A stretch of 45,879 nt of DNA, taken from the UHGV virus genome UHGV-0132371. One strand, written 5' to 3'. The notes beneath the pieces are model-generated. The model ran no database searches, was not told the DNA's origin, and saw only the letters and a program-made list of their open reading frames with translations. The position numbers were made by a program, and so were the translations under genes. Origin of the DNA: a virus. Below, piece after piece: positions 1 through 45,879 of this stretch; within the stretch, counting starts at the first letter, position 1, and every line of letters starts with the position of its first letter.

Positions 1-49
1 GCATCAGAATGAGATATAATGAGATTTTTAGTGTTCCGCTTGAGAGTCT

Positions 50-586
50 ATGATGCTTACCCTAGACGAGATAGGTCAATCTGTACGTAACAATATCCAG
101 TTGATTATTGATCATGTCGGCTTACCTCTTGCTGTTGGTCCGCTCAGTGATGATGATTACAAGATTCTGTGTGGTGGCTATGGTGAGCTTGAATGGGACT
201 ATGCGTTAAGCACCTATGGCAACTCCAGAGAAAAGTATGAGTTCTGCATAAAACTTGTTCAGCAAGGTCGGGTTCAGGGAATACCATCAGGAGCAGCAAT
301 TTGTGTTTATGGGGTTGAAGAAAACATCTTTCGTATCCATATGATCGAAAGGTTTTCTAGAGAAGATGAATCTCACCCATTGAAAGGGCGCATGGTTTTA
401 CTCACTCTTATGAGTGCTTTTATATTTTGTAAAGCTGTTGAATGTAAAGTTGTCCACATTGTAGAGCCAGTACCAGAACTGGTGCAGTATTACGAGTCTT
501 TTGGTTTCCGCATGGAACAGTGCGGTTATGTGATGTCTGCAGTCATTGATGAGCTGCAGGATATCTTTCTTAAATTTGCTCAGTAG
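50..586 (+). CDS. Hypothetical protein, possibly GNAT-like (weak); AT-rich cargo gene
   Basis: 178 aa ORF in AT-rich context; C-terminal YYESFGF resembles the GNAT acetyl-CoA fold motif only loosely. Confidence 0.45.
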   Translation: MMLTLDEIGQSVRNNIQLIIDHVGLPLAVGPLSDDDYKILCGGYGELEWDYALSTYGNSREKYEFCIKLVQQGRVQGIPSGAAICVYGVEENIFRIHMIERFSREDESHPLKGRMVLLTLMSAFIFCKAVECKVVHIVEPVPELVQYYESFGFRMEQCGYVMSAVIDELQDIFLKFAQ

Positions 587-782: not shown

Positions 783-956
783 ATGAAAGATCAAAAAGCA
801 ACCAAGCCACAGGTTAAGTTCGACACAATGAAAGCATTCGCAGGTATGGGTGCTGCTGTTGAAGTTCTGATGAAGGCTGCTCCTAATGCGTTCACTCACG
901 CTACTGTCTCTGGTAAAGAGCAGCAGGGTAAGCTTCGTCGTCGCAAAGCAGCATGA
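783..956 (+). CDS. Small hypothetical protein (57 aa)
   Basis: ATG preceded by GGGAG about 9 nt upstream; ORF ends just before a strong hairpin terminator. Not in the supplied ORF track (below its length cutoff). Confidence 0.4.
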   Translation: MKDQKATKPQVKFDTMKAFAGMGAAVEVLMKAAPNAFTHATVSGKEQQGKLRRRKAA

Positions 957-975: not shown

Positions 976-1003
976 AAAACCCGCCTTTAGGCGGGTTTTT
1001 TCT
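976..1003 (+). terminator. Rho-independent terminator, probably bidirectional
   Basis: AAAACCCGCC-TTTA-GGCGGG hairpin followed by TTTTTTCTTT; lies between convergent genes. Confidence 0.6.
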
Positions 1004-1285
1004 TTAGTGATGTTCTTTGCCCTTCTGTTTGCCTGTTCTGACCTGTTCCCACTCGATACGTCCTTCTTCTCGTCTTTTGTCTATGTATTCCGCAAGATCC
1101 TGAATATTGATGCAACGTTTTGCTTTTTGTGATGTGCCGATGCGATATGTTGGAACGGGCAACTTACAAGCGTTTGCTTTTGCTTCTGCCGTGGCTGGAC
1201 TCATGCCAAAGTACTTTTGGCTAACTGCTGAGAGTTCAATGTTAGGGGTATTGAATTCAGCCATCAGTAAAAACAAGGTGTTCAT
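1004..1285 (-). CDS. Excisionase-like / PrtN-AlpA-type small DNA-binding protein
   Basis: About 93 aa, last gene of the leftward early operon; start chosen at MNTLF, which has GGAG 8 nt upstream (track ORF extends to 1312). Family assignment from memory. Confidence 0.5.
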   Translation of the reverse strand: MNTLFLLMAEFNTPNIELSAVSQKYFGMSPATAEAKANACKLPVPTYRIGTSQKAKRCINIQDLAEYIDKRREEGRIEWEQVRTGKQKGKEHH

Positions 1286-1321
1286 AATTTTCTCCATCAA
1301 AACCGGCTGCACCCGGGAAAA

Positions 1322-1894
1322 TCATAATTCTGTGCTGGTGGCAGGAATTAATTTCTGCCAGATAGCGGAAACATATTTTGCCTGATGACGAGCATCAGCC
1401 AGGGCGTTGTGCCGTTCGCCATCGAAAGGCATGTCCATTTTGGGGTCGAATCCGATGAAACGCCCAAGCGTAACGATCGTGCGTACATCGTGGTCATTCC
1501 AGTACGCCCACGGGCAGATTTGTCCTGCTCGCTCGTAAGCTCCACGTAAAATTACGTTGTCGAAGGTGGCCCCGTTACCCCAGACTTTTAAATATTTTGT
1601 ATTGTCTGCATGCTGATTAATGAAATGGCTCAGTTCAGATAGGGCAGATGATATCGGCATCGCATCATCAACACAGATTGCTGATCGTGCTTCTGAGCTT
1701 TGTCTTAACCACCACAGAATAGTGTCACCATCCGGCACCGCTCCCTGCTCCATAGCGCTTTCAAGATTAACAGCGGTGTAAAACTCCTGACCCAGTTCAC
1801 CGCTTTGCGGATCGAAGAATACGGCACCAATGGAGACAATAGGGGCATTCGGTTTTTTGCCCATGGACTCAAGGTCGATCATTAAGTTGTTCAC
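1322..1894 (-). CDS. 3'-5' exonuclease (DnaQ-like fold)
   Basis: 190 aa; N-terminal MNNLMIDLESMG...IVSIGAV and a later H-x4-D are typical of the DEDDh exonuclease fold common in enterobacterial prophages. Confidence 0.7.
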   Translation of the reverse strand: MNNLMIDLESMGKKPNAPIVSIGAVFFDPQSGELGQEFYTAVNLESAMEQGAVPDGDTILWWLRQSSEARSAICVDDAMPISSALSELSHFINQHADNTKYLKVWGNGATFDNVILRGAYERAGQICPWAYWNDHDVRTIVTLGRFIGFDPKMDMPFDGERHNALADARHQAKYVSAIWQKLIPATSTEL

Positions 1895-2653: not shown

Positions 2654-2962
2654 TTAATCCCATTGCAAAACTGATGCGAAATATGCACCGCGACACGGCG
2701 AATCACGAGGATGATGCCAGCCTGAATAGCCATCCTGACCACCTATTGGGCTAACTTTGTACCAGCACTGATAATAGCGGGCGCTACTTGCAAAATCAGC
2801 CGCACCATCCGAGTCGATTACATCTTGGGACACAGAAGCCTGAATTATTTCCGCTTCCGTATAATCGCCGCGCATAACGATGAATCGCGCATCTTCCGAG
2901 CAAAGATAATCACATGAACCGTCATATTTACCTTTGGCGGTAGGTTTGATTAATTTATCCAT
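2654..2962 (-). CDS. Hypothetical phage protein
   Basis: 102 aa ORF with GGGGGAG RBS; packed in operon. Confidence 0.45.
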   Translation of the reverse strand: MDKLIKPTAKGKYDGSCDYLCSEDARFIVMRGDYTEAEIIQASVSQDVIDSDGAADFASSARYYQCWYKVSPIGGQDGYSGWHHPRDSPCRGAYFASVLQWD

Positions 2963-8934: not shown

Positions 8935-9108
8935 ATGCGCGAAGTTAACCGAAGGTTCAAAGACCACAGAGGGATCCCCGTTCGGGTTATCCGGTGGGAG
9001 CCTGAAACGCGGCGTGTTATCTACCTGCGAGCAGGGTATGAGCACGAATGCTTCAGCCCACTTGAGCATTTCAGGCAAAAGTTCAGGGAGATAGAGGATG
9101 AGAGCTAA
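8935..9108 (+). CDS. Small hypothetical protein (57 aa)
   Basis: AGGAAGG RBS before the ATG; the alternative frame starting at 8768 is also open but ends in low-complexity sequence. Confidence 0.3.
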   Translation: MREVNRRFKDHRGIPVRVIRWEPETRRVIYLRAGYEHECFSPLEHFRQKFREIEDES

Positions 9109-9136
9109 CCCAATGAAAAAAAACTTAACTGAGAAT

Positions 9137-9538
9137 TTATCCTGCCAGGGCATTAATCCTCAATTTGATAGCCTTTTCTTCAACTTTGAACCTCTTTTTC
9201 AGGTCTTCGAGTTCTTTGGCGAGAGCAATGTATTGATCCGCAACTCCATATTGAGCAATCAGTCCGGTTGCCAGTTTAGCATCGGCGTTTTCTGGATCAT
9301 CAACATCGATGATTTTTCCATATTTTCCGGTAATAACGGCAATACGGTGCTTGCACATCGTGCCCATTTCACCAGCAATGCAAGTGCATTCTATTTCGAG
9401 GTTACCGCTCTGATCGCTGATGGTTACATCGTAAAAACCATCACCGCTGCTGCTGTTAGCCAAAAGTTGGTAGATCACGTTGTATCTCCTTATTTTTTTG
9501 TAGCGGTTAACGCTCATCCCAACCTCATTATTGATCAT
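9137..9538 (-). CDS. SWIM-type zinc-finger protein, opposite strand within the rightward early region
   Basis: C-x-C-x7-C-x-H (ECTCIAGEMGTMCKH) SWIM signature; AT-rich. The start may instead be the internal Met at 9517, which has GAGG upstream. Confidence 0.5.
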   Translation of the reverse strand: MINNEVGMSVNRYKKIRRYNVIYQLLANSSSGDGFYDVTISDQSGNLEIECTCIAGEMGTMCKHRIAVITGKYGKIIDVDDPENADAKLATGLIAQYGVADQYIALAKELEDLKKRFKVEEKAIKLRINALAG

Positions 9539-9620
9539 GCTTTATTCCAGGTATACACTGTCTCGGCAGCGGCAAAATCCGTTGCCGGGATTGGCGTCCT
9601 GGAATTGATTAAAGAGCACA

Positions 9621-9642
9621 ACCGCGCTCTGGCGGTTTTTTT
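9621..9642 (+). terminator. Possible weak intrinsic terminator (tR1-like)
   Basis: Short ACCGC...GCGGT stem followed by TTTTTTT. Confidence 0.3.
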
Positions 9643-9807
9643 GTGCGAAATGCATTGCTACACCCTGATTATGGTGGGGCGTGCAGGGGCATCGAAAGAT
9701 GCGCCGGCTTCTTTAGTCACCGGTTACGCCAACCCTGCACGTCTCACCACCAATGAGATTGGCGTCTCTTGTGGTGAGTTGTTAAAACTGACTAAAGAGG
9801 CAGCCAT

Positions 9808-10354
9808 CATGGCTACGATCCCAACCCTCGTTCAACCTGAAATTTCCGTAATTAACGGTCAGGCCGTTACCTCCTCTCTGGCTATTGCCGACTTCTTCAC
9901 TAAGCGTCACGATGACGTACTGAAAAAAATCCGCGCTCTGGAGTGTTCGCTAGAATTCACTGCCCGCAATTTTGCGGTGAGTGAATACACCGACGCTACA
10001 GGCCGCAAACTTCCCTGCTATCAAATCACCCGCGATGGCTTCGCGTTCCTCGCTATGGGCTTCACTGGTAAGCGAGCAGCACAGTTCAAAGAGGCATACA
10101 TCACAGCCTTCAACAGGATGGAAAATGCGCTTCACGGGGCAAGTGATAATTTCTGCGCAGCGCACAATGCCCACGTTGTTTACCTCTACATGTCTGAAAT
10201 TCACCGCGTCTGGTTAGAACAACTTTATCCGATGTTGGTTTCTGTTCAGTCTCCGCTAGCTTCATCACTCTACGACTACATCAACGATGGTGTATTCGTT
10301 GCTGGGTTGGTGGACTCGGAACTGAACAAAAAGCACAAGGAGGTGCGAAAGTGA
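9808..10354 (+). CDS. Rha-family phage regulatory protein
   Basis: Start at the ATG with AAAGAGG RBS (track ORF artificially extends upstream to 9098); ING..VTSSL.IADFF.KRHDDVLKKI and YQITRDGF.FLAMGFTG.RAA.FK motifs. Confidence 0.6.
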
Positions 10355-22693: not shown

Positions 22694-24282
22694 AAACACC
22701 TGCTTTGTTAGGACCGGACGGTAAAACCGCTCTGCGGGATTATGCCGGATACCATGGCGGTGCTGGTGGCTTTGGCGGTCAGCTCCGCGCCTGGAATCCA
22801 CCGAGTGAAAGCGCAGATGCTGCGTTATTGCCTAATTTTTCCCGTGGTAACGCGCGCGCTGACGATCTGGTCCGCAATAACGGCTATGCGGCAAACGCGG
22901 TACAGCTCCATCAGGACCACATTGTAGGGTCGTTTTTCCGGCTCAGTTATCGGCCCAGCTGGCGTTTTCTTGGCATTGGAGAGGAAGAGGCCCGGGCGTT
23001 CTCCCGTGAAGTTGAGGCGGCCTGGAAAGAATTTGCGGAGGATGATTGCTGCTGCATTGATGCGGAACGTAAGCGTACATTCACCATGATGATCCGTGAA
23101 GGTGTATCCATGCATGCGTTTAACGGTGAGTTATGTGCACAGGCCACCTGGGACAGTGATTCCACGCGTCTTTTCCGCACACAGTTCAAAATGGTGAGCC
23201 CGAAACGCATCAGCAACCCCAATAACGCCGGAGACACGCGAAACTGTCGGGCGGGGGTCAGAACAAATGACAGTGGCGCCGCGCTGGGATATTACGTCAG
23301 CGAAGATGGCTATCCGGGGTGGATGGCGCAGAAGTGGACCTACATCCCGCGTGAGCTGCCAGGCGGGCGGCCTTCCTTTATCCACGTATTTGAACCCCTG
23401 GAAGATGGGCAGACACGCGGTGCTAACGTGTTTTACAGCGTCATGGAGCAAATGAAAATGCTCGATACACTGCAGAATACGCAGCTCCAGAGCGCGATTG
23501 TCAAGGCGATGTATGCCGCCACGATTGAAAGTGAGCTGGATACGCAAACCGCGATGGACTTTATTCTCGGCTCAGACAGTAAAGAGCAGCAAAGCAAGAT
23601 GACCGGCTGGCTGGGGGAGATGGCCTCGTACTATACCGCTGCGCCGGTTCGTCTCGGCGGCGCGAAGGTGCCGCATCTGATGCCGGGCGACTCCCTGAAT
23701 CTTCAGTCAGCGCAGGATACTGATAACGGCTATTCGACGTTTGAACAATCTCTGCTGCGCTACATTGCCGCAGGGCTGGGTGTGTCGTATGAGCAACTCT
23801 CTCGCAACTATTCGCAGATGAGTTATTCCACCGCCCGCGCCAGTGCTAACGAGTCCTGGGCGTACTTTATGGGGCGCCGCAAATTTGTTGCCTCCCGCCA
23901 GGCCTGTCAGATGTTTTTATGCTGGCTGGAAGAGGCCATTGTTCGCCGGGTGGTGACACTACCGTCTAAAGCCCGATTCAGTTTTCAGGAGGCGAGAAGC
24001 GCCTGGGGAAATGCAGACTGGATCGGCTCCGGGAGAATGGCCATTGACGGTCTGAAGGAGGTGCAGGAGGCTGTCATGCTCATTGAGGCTGGGCTGAGCA
24101 CCTATGAGAAGGAATGCGCCAAACGGGGGGAAGATTATCAGGAAATCTTTGCCCAGCAGGTTCGCGAAACGATGGAGCGTCGCGCAGCGGGACTTAAACC
24201 GCCAGCGTGGGCGGCTTCGGCCTTTGAGTCTGGAGTGAAAAAATCGAATGAGGAGGGGACCGATGACGCCAGAGCTGCGTAA
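22690..24282 (+). CDS. B: Portal protein gpB
   Basis: 530 aa, high similarity to lambda B. Confidence 0.9.
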
Positions 24283-41293: not shown

Positions 41294-42301
41294 ATGCTTT
41301 ATAACACAGGAACTATCTCTATTAACGGAAATACCGCAACCGGATCCGGTACAAACTGGACTGCACCGGCCAGCCAGGTTCGCGCTGGCCAGACGATTAT
41401 TGTCATGTCTAACCCGGTTCAGATGTTCCAGATTTCATCCGTGAATAGCGCCACGTCAATGACGGTAACGCCTGCTGCATCACCGGCGCTGAGCGGCCAG
41501 AAGTACGGCATTCTGGTATCAGACAATATCTCGGTTGATGGGCTGGCGCAGGCCATGTCGCAGCTTATCAAGGAGTATGACGAGAATATTGGCGCGTGGG
41601 AGACGTTCGCCACCACCTCAGCAAACCAAAGCATCACAGTTACCATCAACGGCACCGCCGTAACCATCCCAGGCATCGGTAAACTTGCGCAGAAAGGGAG
41701 CAATGGTGCGCTTGCAATCGCTGACGGCGGGACCGGGGCAACGAAGGCAGAAGACGCTCGCAAAAACCTTGGTTTGGGAGAAGGTGCTCCAGCTATTGGC
41801 GTTCCGTTCTTCTGGCCGTCCGCCGCAATGCCAAATACTGTAATCGACAGTTGGTCCAGTATGGTGTTTTTGAAGTTCAACGGCGCGAAATTCTCTGCCA
41901 CTGATTACCCTGTGCTGGCGAAAGTGTTTCCGGCGCTAGCATTACCTGACGCACGGGGTGATTTCATTCGTATCTGGGATGATGGGCGCGGGATTGATGT
42001 CGGACGTACCCTACTTTCAGGGCAATCACACACAATTATGGATCATGCACACAATATGGAATTGTGGACGGGGGACGGGCTTGCCGCAGGAAGTGCACGG
42101 GAAGGAGTAAACCCAGGAATACTGGCTACATACGGTGACGGGGGAATAGTTAAAACGGACGAACCCGGTCTTAAGGTGCCTTCCTCACTACGAGCTCTTA
42201 GCTCTCGTAGTGTTAAACGTTATGGTGAAATTAGTGGAAATGTAGATACAGAAACCCGTCCACGAAATATTGCATTTAACTTTCTGGTGAGGGCTAAATA
42301 A
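41294..42301 (+). CDS. Side tail fibre protein (constant N-terminus plus currently expressed variable C-terminus)
   Basis: Start at the ATG with GGAGAA RBS; glycine-rich fibre-like sequence; the recombination site lies inside the gene. Confidence 0.7.
   Translation: MLYNTGTISINGNTATGSGTNWTAPASQVRAGQTIIVMSNPVQMFQISSVNSATSMTVTPAASPALSGQKYGILVSDNISVDGLAQAMSQLIKEYDENIGAWETFATTSANQSITVTINGTAVTIPGIGKLAQKGSNGALAIADGGTGATKAEDARKNLGLGEGAPAIGVPFFWPSAAMPNTVIDSWSSMVFLKFNGAKFSATDYPVLAKVFPALALPDARGDFIRIWDDGRGIDVGRTLLSGQSHTIMDHAHNMELWTGDGLAAGSAREGVNPGILATYGDGGIVKTDEPGLKVPSSLRALSSRSVKRYGEISGNVDTETRPRNIAFNFLVRAK
41757..41784. other. Left crossover site of the invertible tail-fibre segment (Hin/Gin/Pin-type)
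   Basis: CTCGCAAAAACCTTGGTTTGGGAGAAGG; its TTGGTTTGGGAGAAG core is an inverted copy of 43629..43643. Confidence 0.55.
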
Positions 42302-43309: not shown

Positions 43310-43662
43310 TACCAGCCCTTAGCGAAAAACGCACCACCTTCAAGACCATAATTGCAGTGAGCTATGAAGCCGGTAGTGCTCCAGTTGGTCGCCCCCCACA
43401 TATTCCCGCCCCCGAAACCACCATCGCACACAATTACAATGCCCGGTGTCTGTGTAAATGGAATCGGGAATGAAACATTGGCGGATACAGGCCCGTGTTC
43501 ACCAGGAAAACTAATTCGTCCCCACTGTTCAATTGAACCATCTGGCATTTTTCGCCAGCCTGAACCTGATGCATATGATGACATATCAGGTATCTGATTT
43601 TCCCCTGTTCCCACATTCCGTTTTGCCGCTTCTCCCAAACCAACCTTTTTTATAACCATCAA
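43309..43662 (-). CDS. Alternative tail fibre C-terminal segment (promoterless; expressed after inversion)
   Basis: The frame stays open through the right crossover site and encodes KKVGLGE, matching KNLGLGE at the left site in the expressed gene. Confidence 0.55.
43629..43655. other. Right crossover site of the invertible tail-fibre segment
   Basis: CTTCTCCCAAACCAACCTTTTTTATAA; inverted copy of the left-site core. Confidence 0.55.
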
Positions 43663-43714
43663 AAATCTGGTGATGCTTCGCCGTTTCTCCTGTTTTCATA
43701 ACAGGAGAAATCCC

Positions 43715-44278
43715 ATGATTTACGGTTATGCCCGAGTATCAACAAACCACCAGGACACTGAATTGCAACTAACGGCGCTCAAGTCAGCGGGTTGTGAGAA
43801 AATTTTTGAAGAGCATGCCAGCGGGAGGAAATCGAATCGGCCGGTTCTAAAACGGCTCATCGCCACTATGCAGCCGGGGGATGAACTGGTGGTCTGGAAG
43901 CTGGACAGGATAGGCCGCAACGTTCTGCATGCGCTGTTGATGTTCCAGCAGTTACAGGAAAAGGGTATCAACTTCCGCAGTATTACCGATGGCGTGGATC
44001 TCAAAACAGCCAGCGGCCGCTATAACTTTCGTAACATCCTTTCCGCAGCACAATATGAATCTGATCTTAATAGCGAACGTACCTTAGCAGGGCTGGCCGT
44101 AGCCAGGGCAAAAGGGCGAGTTGGTGGGCGTAGACCGAAGTTTAGCGACGAGCAGTGGCAACAGATGGGAGCGCTCATAGCGGCAGGGAAATCACGGCGT
44201 TATGTTGCACGTATCTATAACGTTGGGCTATCAACCCTATATAAACGATTTCCTGTTACTGGCATTCAAACGAAATAA
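43715..44278 (+). CDS. Serine recombinase, DNA invertase of the Hin/Gin/Pin/Cin family
   Basis: MIYGYARVSTNHQ catalytic N-terminus; C-terminal HTH; AGGAGAAA RBS (track ORF starts upstream at 43670). Confidence 0.85.
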   Translation: MIYGYARVSTNHQDTELQLTALKSAGCEKIFEEHASGRKSNRPVLKRLIATMQPGDELVVWKLDRIGRNVLHALLMFQQLQEKGINFRSITDGVDLKTASGRYNFRNILSAAQYESDLNSERTLAGLAVARAKGRVGGRRPKFSDEQWQQMGALIAAGKSRRYVARIYNVGLSTLYKRFPVTGIQTK

Positions 44279-44421
44279 TTTAAAAGCAATTTAAAGAGTT
44301 ATTTGTCTAATGTTGGAAGCCGCAGCCACGTCGTATGCAAGAACGTGCTGCGGCTGGCTGGCGAACTTTCGATAGTGCGAGTATTGAATGATTTCCAGCC
44401 GTTACCGATTTTACGTGTTAA

Positions 44422-44670
44422 TTAGTGAACAAACCACTCGTCAGCAGATTCCCAGGTATCTTTCAGAGTCTCCTGAACAAAAGTTTTTGCAGAATCCTTA
44501 TCTGCGGTGCGTGTAACAGAAAGGCCATCGTTGCTGGTGGCTTTTACGATCACCTCTACATCGTCATAACGTTTACTGATGCGTCGGGTTAATTCTTCCT
44601 TTAACGCATCCACAGCACCGGTTGGCATTTTAGTCATTTTTTCTTTGGCTATGCAGATTTCAATACGCAT
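44422..44670 (-). CDS. dinI: DinI-like DNA-damage-inducible protein
   Basis: 82 aa resembling E. coli DinI (MRIE..IAK...GA.DAL..EL.RRI...[11 protein letters not shown]). Confidence 0.75.
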
Positions 44671-44683
44671 AAAAGTCCCTCTA

Positions 44684-44731
44684 TACTGTGTTTGTATACA
44701 GTATTGTTTTTAACTGTATTGATAAACAGTG
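44684..44731. promoter_or_regulatory. Two tandem LexA boxes (SOS operators) upstream of dinI
   Basis: TACTGTGTTTGTATACAGTA (44684..44703) and AACTGTATTGATAAACAGTG (44712..44731), both CTGT-N8-ACAG. Confidence 0.65.
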
Positions 44732-45829
44732 TCAAGAGATCTTATTTCTGCTCCTTTGGAGCTCTTCAAAACGATTATGTAAAGATTTTGGATACAGTTC
44801 GGTATATACCTGCCATAGCACGTTTAATGAACGATGCCCTGTAACCTGGGCTACTTCCTCAATACTAAAACCAGCCTCAAATAAGCGACTTGCCCCTTCT
44901 CTACGCAAATCATGGTATCGCAGATCCTTAATACCTAATTTGCTTCTTACCCTCTGAAATCCCGCAGTAACAGAAGTGCTGTTATATGGAAAAATGAATT
45001 CCGATTTTTGGGGCTGTCGTTGGACGATATCCCAGGCTTCCCCAAGCAAGGCTACTTTCATGTGGTTGCCTTCCTTTTTGCGTGGATCTTTCCTGTCTCT
45101 TACGAGTATAGATTTTTGTTCCTGGTCGAGATCTTCCCATCGTAACCGGCATACTTCTCCGATTCGCATACAGGACCACACAGAAAATTTGAGGATATCA
45201 ACGAACGGAATTTTTGAGCATTTATGAGTAGATCGTTGTTGAAGGCCTTCAATGAGCATGTCCAGTTCATCAGATGCTGGTCTACGATTACGACGGTTTG
45301 ATTTACCAATTAAACCAAGTTTAAGTAGATATGGACGAGCGGCTTTTGCTGGGTTTGATGTGTAATTAATTCCATATACAGGTTTGGCAGCATCCAGAAC
45401 ACTGCCAAGATAACTAACATCGTGGCTAACTGTAGCTGGACCTGCACCAGCGTTGTTTCTTAGCCTGCAATGTTCAATTACGTCATTTTCTGTCAGTTCA
45501 GATAGTTTGATCGCGGAGATGTCACTATCCATAAGCAGTTCCAGCACATATCTTTTAGTACGGCCTGCTTTACCTCCGGCATTTGGGTCATTTAAATATT
45601 TGTGTAGTAAGTCACGGACTGTAAGTCCGTCAACTGCATTTGATGATGGAATGCCATATAGATCTAATTCCATCACTTTCTGTGTGCCCCATGTTTTGGC
45701 ATGAGCATGTTTAGGGAATGTTTTGCTTTCCCTGTAAGTGATAACACCTTTTTCTTTGATAATCACATTACAGCGATAGCGTGGTGTGCCATCGGATTTT
45801 AGTCGTTTCTCTATGTTATAGTACGCCAT
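44732..45829 (-). CDS. int: Tyrosine site-specific integrase
   Basis: 365 aa; C-terminal catalytic motifs (HDLRREGASRL, VTGHRSL, YTELY); GAGG RBS. Confidence 0.85.
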   Translation of the reverse strand: MAYYNIEKRLKSDGTPRYRCNVIIKEKGVITYRESKTFPKHAHAKTWGTQKVMELDLYGIPSSNAVDGLTVRDLLHKYLNDPNAGGKAGRTKRYVLELLMDSDISAIKLSELTENDVIEHCRLRNNAGAGPATVSHDVSYLGSVLDAAKPVYGINYTSNPAKAARPYLLKLGLIGKSNRRNRRPASDELDMLIEGLQQRSTHKCSKIPFVDILKFSVWSCMRIGEVCRLRWEDLDQEQKSILVRDRKDPRKKEGNHMKVALLGEAWDIVQRQPQKSEFIFPYNSTSVTAGFQRVRSKLGIKDLRYHDLRREGASRLFEAGFSIEEVAQVTGHRSLNVLWQVYTELYPKSLHNRFEELQRSRNKIS

Positions 45830-45879
45830 TACACGACCTCGTTATTTCGGGTTCCCATAAAACGTGGGAACCTGTGCGG

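Follow-up and report, generated by a model that had tools for sequence, protein, structure and literature searches.

A probable mEp460-like lambdoid prophage trimmed just short of its dusA attachment sites, with candidate integrase arm-type repeats in attP

The family of dusA-specific integrases (Int), the replacement of the dusA 5' end by the integrated element and the frequent presence of a prtN homologue were described in 2015 (Farrugia et al., PMC4482086). For phage 1720a-02 (Phi-stx2dact, KF030445.1), integration 100 base pairs (bp) into dusA was demonstrated experimentally, together with the 7-base core, the in-frame dusA' of the phage and the position of int by the junction (PMC6328086). 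Moreover, RdfN, a member of the PrtN family, was shown to act as the excision factor of a dusA-specific element whose attP is flanked by int on one side and rdfN on the other (Durand et al. 2021, PMC8409611). Here we investigated the integration region of the virus genome UHGV-0132371, a stretch of 45,879 nucleotides (nt) that we refer to as the window. With a probability of roughly 0.9, the window is an mEp460-like lambdoid prophage in prophage gene order, which encodes a dusA-specific tyrosine Int and was trimmed about 50 nt beyond its terminal genes, leaving both att sites just outside. The integration target is dusA, at the start of the gene, and the prophage type is an ordinary one, very common in Escherichia coli.

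The following features at the two ends of the window bear on this assignment.

1..49, no strand assigned: last 49 nt of the int-distal (P') arm of attP; exact match to the circular record of E. coli strain AH02 and to the attL of E. coli PMV-1.
1004..1312, minus strand: gene of the rdfN/prtN family; matches PF11112 (PrtN; E 4e-23) in Pfam as well as PHROG 1300 "excisionase" (E 8e-40); the start is at 1285 in RefSeq relatives.
44732..45829, minus strand: int, dusA-specific tyrosine integrase of 365 amino acids (aa); PF00589 at E 7.5e-21; start codon 50 nt from the window end.
45830..45879, no strand assigned: first 50 nt of the int-proximal (P) arm of attP; its last 40 nt equal the AH02 circular record, which runs 134 nt further to ATGCTCGA.

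DNA comparison showed collinearity of both window ends with lambdoid phages of the mEp460 group. In mEp460, 339 bp separate the start of int from the start of an open reading frame (ORF) of 178 aa; of this interval, only the outermost 50 and 49 nt are present in the window. The missing part could be read from the circular AH02 record (43,680 bp), which was deposited as an E. coli plasmid and is an excised copy of a closely related phage; strain AH02 carries an integrated copy as well. The terminal 40 nt at either end of the window match this record exactly, and the 237 bp between window end and window start consist of 134 nt, the 8-nt core ATGCTCGA and 95 nt. The core thus starts 135 nt after position 45879 (+135 to +142) and ends 95 nt before position 1. 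Because these 237 bp of attP, including the crossover core, are missing, the window is in prophage order and opened at attP, and is not complete. Both of its ends stop about 50 nt outside the terminal ORFs, from which we infer that it was excised from a larger contig by gene coordinates. What lies beyond the window end is the rest of the P arm, a phage-borne mimic of the dusA 5' end and the core; before the window start lie two P' repeats and, again, the core. No att site was found in the window since the site lies about 100 to 140 nt outside both ends, and indeed nothing resembling the dusA att core was present inside, even with 2 mismatches allowed. Nor are there tRNA or tmRNA genes anywhere in the window. 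The initial annotation, made from the sequence alone, had already remarked that no tRNA-derived core was to be seen, and the reason is that the target is a protein-coding gene: the junctions fall inside the dusA coding sequence. The same annotation had predicted that int and a Xis-like gene would be neighbors in a circle, separated by two AT-rich ORFs, and this is the arrangement seen in mEp460 and in the circular AH02 record.

The host side of the junctions was read from chromosomal copies. In copies 99 to 99.9% identical at the int end, dusA, pspG and qorA lie directly beside int, and int and dusA are divergent and 88 bp apart. In copies 99.8 to 100% identical at the left end, the flank is zur, with or without a yjbM-like gene, and in strain 97.3 the attL side carries a 105-bp pseudogene whose annotation is that of a tRNA-dihydrouridine synthase 5' end. 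Every near-identical chromosomal copy examined thus has host genes at both ends (zur/yjbM plus the dusA 5' fragment on one side, dusA-pspG-qorA on the other), the outcome that the initial annotation had named as contradicting its own interpretation. The earlier observation that the window has no host flanks is accurate in that no host DNA lies inside it; the reason is that the ends were trimmed, not that the genome is whole. The attR junction was present in 742 of 5426 complete E. coli genomes (about 14%), and an intact attP in only 3 small circular records of the same scan. Similarly, 62 IMG/VR loci carry the last 50 nt of the window as an exact match; among the 58 with enough downstream sequence, 53 run into host dusA (with the core at the same offset in all but one), and 3 of the 62 run into attP. 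One point tells against the assignment: the flanks were read in the closest complete genomes (99.9 to 100% identical at either end), none of which is shown to be the source of the window.

The three records with an intact attP are RefSeq "plasmid" entries of 37.7 to 43.7 kilobases (kb), namely, NZ_CP081704.1, NZ_CP081794.1 and NZ_CP081716.1. Circular attP-bearing copies were co-assembled with an integrated copy in strains AH02, CT01 and CX04. As circular and integrated copies occur in the same strains, we take this as a sign of spontaneous induction in the sequenced cultures.

In a further step, the crossover was located by a four-way alignment of attP from mEp460, attL and attR from strain 97.3 and attB from the empty site of K-12. 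The four sites read as follows.

attP: GCATTGCTCCT-ATGCTCGA-TAGGATG
attB: GCGTTGCACCA-ATGCTCGA-CTGGACG
attL: left half of attB and right half of attP
attR: left half of attP and right half of attB

The partners switch at ATGCTCGA, which places the crossover at about codons 33 to 35 of dusA. Around the core, the pattern GC.CC.ATGCTCGA..GGA is common to attP, attB, attL and attR, and the published Citrobacter rodentium attB, GCTCCCATGCTCGACTGGA (the reverse complement of the printed sequence), carries the same core (PMC6328086). In attP of the window's phage type, the core lies inside the dyad TCCTAT-GCTCG-ATAGGA; in phage EKP1 (OM284015.1) the dyad is CCCAT-GCTCG-ATGGG. A dyad of this kind is the pattern expected of two core-type sites flanking a short overlap.

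In the circular phage, int lies opposite the left-end genes, with the 339-bp attP between them. From the int start outward, attP comprises three copies of the heptamer GGGAACC (one inverted and two direct), the copy of the dusA 5' end, the core and two direct repeats. The phage dusA' is 105 bp long, corresponds to the first 35 codons plus the upstream region, lies on the int side of the core and is found in both attP and attR. Recombination with the identical ATGCTCGA in host dusA would then create attR, in which the phage 5' end is fused in frame and the gene stays intact, and attL, in which the displaced host dusA 5' fragment comes to lie beside the P' arm. The DusA reading frame across attR is indeed intact, MHDNHETQKINQTSVMPEKTGVYWNSRFSIAPMLD being followed directly by WTDRH. 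Beyond the left window end, one would expect the dusA 5' fragment, the sequence GC.CC.ATGCT[C/T]GA and then TAGGATGTACCG, ending 95 nt before position 1; beyond the right end, dusA' would be expected to start 39 nt on, with the core further along leading into dusA.

Several side observations concern dusA and its hosts. Two native forms of the dusA 5' end, quite unlike each other, exist in E. coli, and the prophage uses both. The K-12-type DusA starts with MHGNSEMQK; the other type, MPAESHTVYPAYRFSIAPMLD, is that of PMV-1 and of the type strain ATCC 11775 and is present in 1123 genomes. In this second type, zur is directly upstream, and there is no yjbL or yjbM. In PMV-1 (locus piece 2700..2905), attL and attR both carry ATGCTTGA and not ATGCTCGA, so that either the phage attP had the T or an overlap mismatch was resolved to T. 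As for EKP1, listed as an Elizabethkingia phage with a host among the Flavobacteriia, it encodes an enterobacterial-type dusA Int (67% identical), a DinI, a PrtN and a dusA 5' mimic ending in FSIAPMLD, and its stated host looks doubtful.

We then investigated the hairpin just upstream of int, which the initial annotation had proposed to be associated with an attachment site and which does lie in the int-proximal arm of attP. It pairs GGTTCCCA at 45850..45857 with TGGGAACC at 45865..45872; the full stem is 11 bp (45848..45858 with 45864..45874), and its plus-strand folding z-score is -2.9. The two halves read GGTTCCC and GGGAACC, i.e., two inverted GGGAACC copies, 20 to 43 nt upstream of the int start codon.

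45850..45856, minus strand: probable arm-type Int site, inverted GGGAACC; left half of the hairpin.
45866..45872, plus strand: probable arm-type Int site, direct GGGAACC; right half of the hairpin.

A third copy starts at 45878 and is split by the window end, with GG inside and GAACC beyond. Altogether, GGGA[A/G]CC occurs five times in the 339-bp attP, against 0.07 expected at the window background rate (Poisson P about 1e-8); over the entire window, the heptamer occurs at chance frequency. The copies are at attP positions 21 (inverted), 37 and 49 (direct) on the int side and 236 and 247 (direct) beyond the core, the last two being GGGAGCC and GGGAACC, 50 and 61 nt past the core.

Related phages keep these positions and change the word. 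YeP2, whose Int is 68% identical, has GGGGTGC five times at the same positions on both arms, and EKP1, with an Int 67% identical, has GGTGTAC five times, likewise at the same positions on both arms. One inverted and two direct copies upstream of int were found in more than 40 other genomes, in four word classes. The word class goes along with the N terminus of Int: in Int pairs that are 80 to 100% identical over residues 60 to 355, residues 1 to 45 are 96% identical when the word class is the same, versus 71% when it is different. The Int of Xenorhabdus hominickii (GGTGTAC class) illustrates this. Compared to Xenorhabdus Ints of the GGGGTGC class, it is 88 to 90% identical over residues 60 to 355 and 73% over residues 1 to 45; its N terminus is 93% identical to that of a same-class Int whose remainder is 76% identical. 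Because the heptamers co-vary with the N-terminal domain of Int, we read them as arm-type sites, and by this sequence pattern all five probably are.

The predicted structure of Int is consistent with such a role. An AlphaFold2 (AF2) model built with 115 homologues had a mean predicted local distance difference test (pLDDT) score of 87.9 and a three-domain, lambda-Int-like layout; a single-sequence model (mean pLDDT, 40.5) was discarded. The modeled N terminus comprises three strands (2-10, 16-26 and 29-38) and a helix (41-58); pLDDT is 85 to 93 over residues 1 to 50. Structural alignment to the model covered 367 columns with full-length lambda Int versus 291 with lambda Int 75-356, which is without the arm-binding domain. 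The catalytic residues R222, H306, R309, H332 and Y342 are invariant or nearly so in the 115-homologue alignment. This Int is 99.7% identical to its counterpart in phage 1720a-02 and 98.4% identical to the mEp460 enzyme. In the mechanism that we propose, the N-terminal domain of three-stranded sheet plus helix would read the five heptamers, as in lambda Int; the inverted pair would probably also let Int regulate the divergent int and dusA' promoters; and the PrtN/RdfN-family protein encoded at 1004..1312 would direct excision.

A competing explanation is that the inverted GGGAACC pair is an RNA or DNA hairpin (a leader or terminator of dusA' or int) or an operator for RdfN or a repressor, rather than a pair of arm sites. 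The 11-bp stem and its folding score agree with this, the two halves change jointly across lineages as in base-pair covariation, and binding to the int-side arm would be expected of an excision factor as well. However, the heptamer recurs in direct, nonpalindromic form at a distance of 12 nt and two further times on the opposite arm, and these copies vary together with the pair, which a hairpin would not require. Moreover, the motif class tracks Int residues 1 to 45 even where the remainder of the protein is of another lineage, and that N terminus is predicted to have an arm-binding fold. We consequently regard the hairpin or operator explanation as unlikely.

Several observations nevertheless speak against reading the heptamers as arm-type sites. 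Matched changes in both halves of the inverted repeat would also be expected of an RNA or DNA hairpin, and the link between N domain and motif is partly confounded by shared descent. A Pfam search of Int residues 1 to 110 at E values up to 10 returned nothing, so that the N-domain assignment rests on the predicted fold; for residues 72 to 165, the same threshold gave only a subthreshold Int_N match. A 28-sequence profile of the Int N domain gave only chance hits against PDB sequences, and a sigma-70 consensus scan of attP found no promoter for int or dusA'. Consensus scans for promoters and terminators likewise returned nothing useful near the hairpins or, for terminators, in attP.

On balance, we lean toward the view that the five heptamers are arm-type sites of dusA-specific Ints, read by an N domain of about 45 residues that is swapped between lineages along with the repeats, and that Int occupancy could couple int autoregulation to dusA expression. 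Such coupling with the restored dusA expression is conceivable, given that the palindromic pair separates the start codons of int and dusA', which are divergent. No description of arm-type repeats of dusA-specific Ints was found in the open-access papers searched, and PMC4482086 does not contain the term "arm-type." If true, our reading would provide a simple rule to predict arm specificity in dusA-specific elements, as well as a testable link from integrase occupancy to dusA expression. The proposed attP anatomy would then consist of five arm repeats in step with a swappable Int N domain and of a dyad core, with repeats overlapping the region that drives int and dusA'.

Returning to the window as a whole, the initial annotation had suggested an entire phage genome (circular or circularly permuted) whose opening point is arbitrary and whose ends join directly. 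Such a genome would account for the lack of any host gene in the window and for the location of int and the excisionase-like gene at opposite ends, and near-identical phages do occur as circles in assemblies. Yet every complete relative has 237 bp more between these ends, core included, and the opening is at attP and not at an arbitrary point. Furthermore, the two ends flank attP, each about 50 nt past a terminal ORF, which fits trimming by gene coordinates, and the int end is fused to dusA in 742 genomes. A complete genome is therefore very improbable, and we retain the trimmed prophage.

The remaining candidate structure was a hairpin downstream of int.

44318..44414, no strand assigned: conserved two-hairpin element of about 100 nt that includes the hairpin 44319..44354; present in 198 phage records.

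An attP downstream of int, at or near this GC-rich hairpin between pin and dinI, would reproduce the lambda layout (attP beside the int 3' end) at a strong hairpin that is also the left boundary of mEp460 similarity, but the chance of it is negligible, as the prophage junctions lie on the opposite side of int and the hairpin element is found in 198 phages with unrelated integrases and integration sites, internal in all genomes examined. The hairpin itself, GCCGCAGCCACG paired with CGTGCTGCGGC over 8+3 pairs, is present as the initial annotation described it, except that its end had been placed 2 nt too far, at 44356 instead of 44354. The association with an attachment site that had been proposed for it does not hold, given the unrelated integrases of the 198 carriers: the element is not an attachment site. 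Carriers include lambda (24160..24256, in the b region between ea47 and ea31), cdtI, Salmonella SP-016, Stx phages and an Actinobacillus phage, and the element usually lies downstream of a dinI-like gene. The lambda copy is about 3.5 kb from lambda attP. In every genome examined the element was internal to the prophage. The intergenic region 44279..44421 has a folding z-score of -2.2 for the plus and -3.2 for the minus strand. No T-run follows the hairpin on either strand, and a terminator scan does not report it; without a T-tract, it is therefore not a canonical intrinsic terminator. Rfam at the gathering threshold gave no match at the element, and a relaxed search gave only a subthreshold match to the CssrB 3' hairpin (23.5 bits versus a gathering score of 76). 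Base-pair covariation across 7 sequences was not significant, partly because two of them pair in a shifted register. The element might form a 3' structure on the dinI transcript or else represent a mosaic joint.

The other genes near the two ends of the window are the following.

50..586, plus strand: ORF of 178 aa in a moron position beside attP; phrog_4350 match only; GC 41.7%.
783..956, plus strand: ORF of 57 aa; phrog_2741 match only; GC 47.7%.
1322..1894, minus strand: 3'-5' exonuclease gene.
43670..44278, plus strand: Pin-type serine invertase; RefSeq relatives start at 43715.
44422..44670, minus strand: DinI-like gene, directly downstream of int; PF06183 at E 1e-19.

The two plus-strand ORFs at the left end had no Pfam, NCBIfam or PADLOC match; the GC content of the window is 50.8% overall. 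A TATAAT is present at 15..20, 5' of ORF 50..586, and a GC-rich stem with a T-run lies at about 980..1003, between the two orphan ORFs and prtN. In phages YeP2 and EKP1, the homologous prtN gene directly abuts attP, and the int-attP-prtN interval contains no gene. Since attP is flanked by int and prtN alone in these phages, the two AT-rich ORFs of the window look like inserted morons. The product of 1004..1312 is, by family and position, a probable recombination directionality factor (excisionase); the PrtN-like protein had no match among PDB sequences.

Two further features lie outside the integration region. Rfam places an isrK Hfq-binding RNA at 9566..9642 (74.6 bits) and a C4 antisense RNA at 9667..9754 (81.2 bits), both on the plus strand and inside ORF 9098..10354, which suggests an RNA-controlled antirepressor module of the P1/P7 type in a lambdoid prophage. 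In addition, a 22-nt inverted repeat, AAAAACCTTGGTTTGGGAGAAG, 91% complementary, is found at 41762..41783 and 43629..43650 and brackets alternative tail-fiber C termini and assembly genes beside the Pin invertase. The segment between these repeats resembles the invertible host-range segments of the Gin/Cin/Pin type.

Compared to lambda, whose Int is a heterobivalent integrase with arm-type and core-type sites, the predicted fold of Int is alike in its N-terminal sheet plus helix, core-binding domain and catalytic domain; sequence identity to lambda Int is only about 17%. The attP sites are alike as well, with repeats on both arms that are distinct from the core and a short overlap identical in attP and attB. 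In contrast to lambda, where attP is downstream of int, attP here lies upstream, between int and the excision-factor gene; the excision factor is of the PrtN family and not lambda Xis; and the target is inside a coding gene, for which the phage carries a replacement 5' end. Phage mEp460 (JQ182728.1) has the same block, dinI-int-attP-ORF178-ORF57-prtN-exonuclease, in the same order and with 95 to 98% DNA identity. It differs in being a packaged, cos-ended genome with an intact attP in midgenome and in having no Pin invertase between the tail-fiber genes and dinI. Phage 1720a-02 differs in its stx2 cargo and in its early and late modules, and its DNA is shared with the window over only about 1.5 kb near int and 0.9 kb at the opposite end.

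The mobilizable island IMEVchUSA3 resembles the window in encoding a small PF11112 protein across attP from a dusA-specific int and in restoring the frame and promoter of dusA. In the island, rdfN is driven by AcaCD of an IncC plasmid, whereas the element of the window is a lambdoid phage; the two RdfN proteins are likened by family and position. Finally, the elements described by Farrugia et al. in 2015 share an Int gene adjoining and divergent from dusA, insertion at the 5' end, a substitute 5' end, semiconserved att repeats with a short core and a prtN homologue. Nothing essential differs from them, apart from the trimmed window itself being without att sites and dusA mimic. The integration system of this prophage is already known and well described; what we add is the proposed arm-site architecture and its co-variation with the N terminus of Int.

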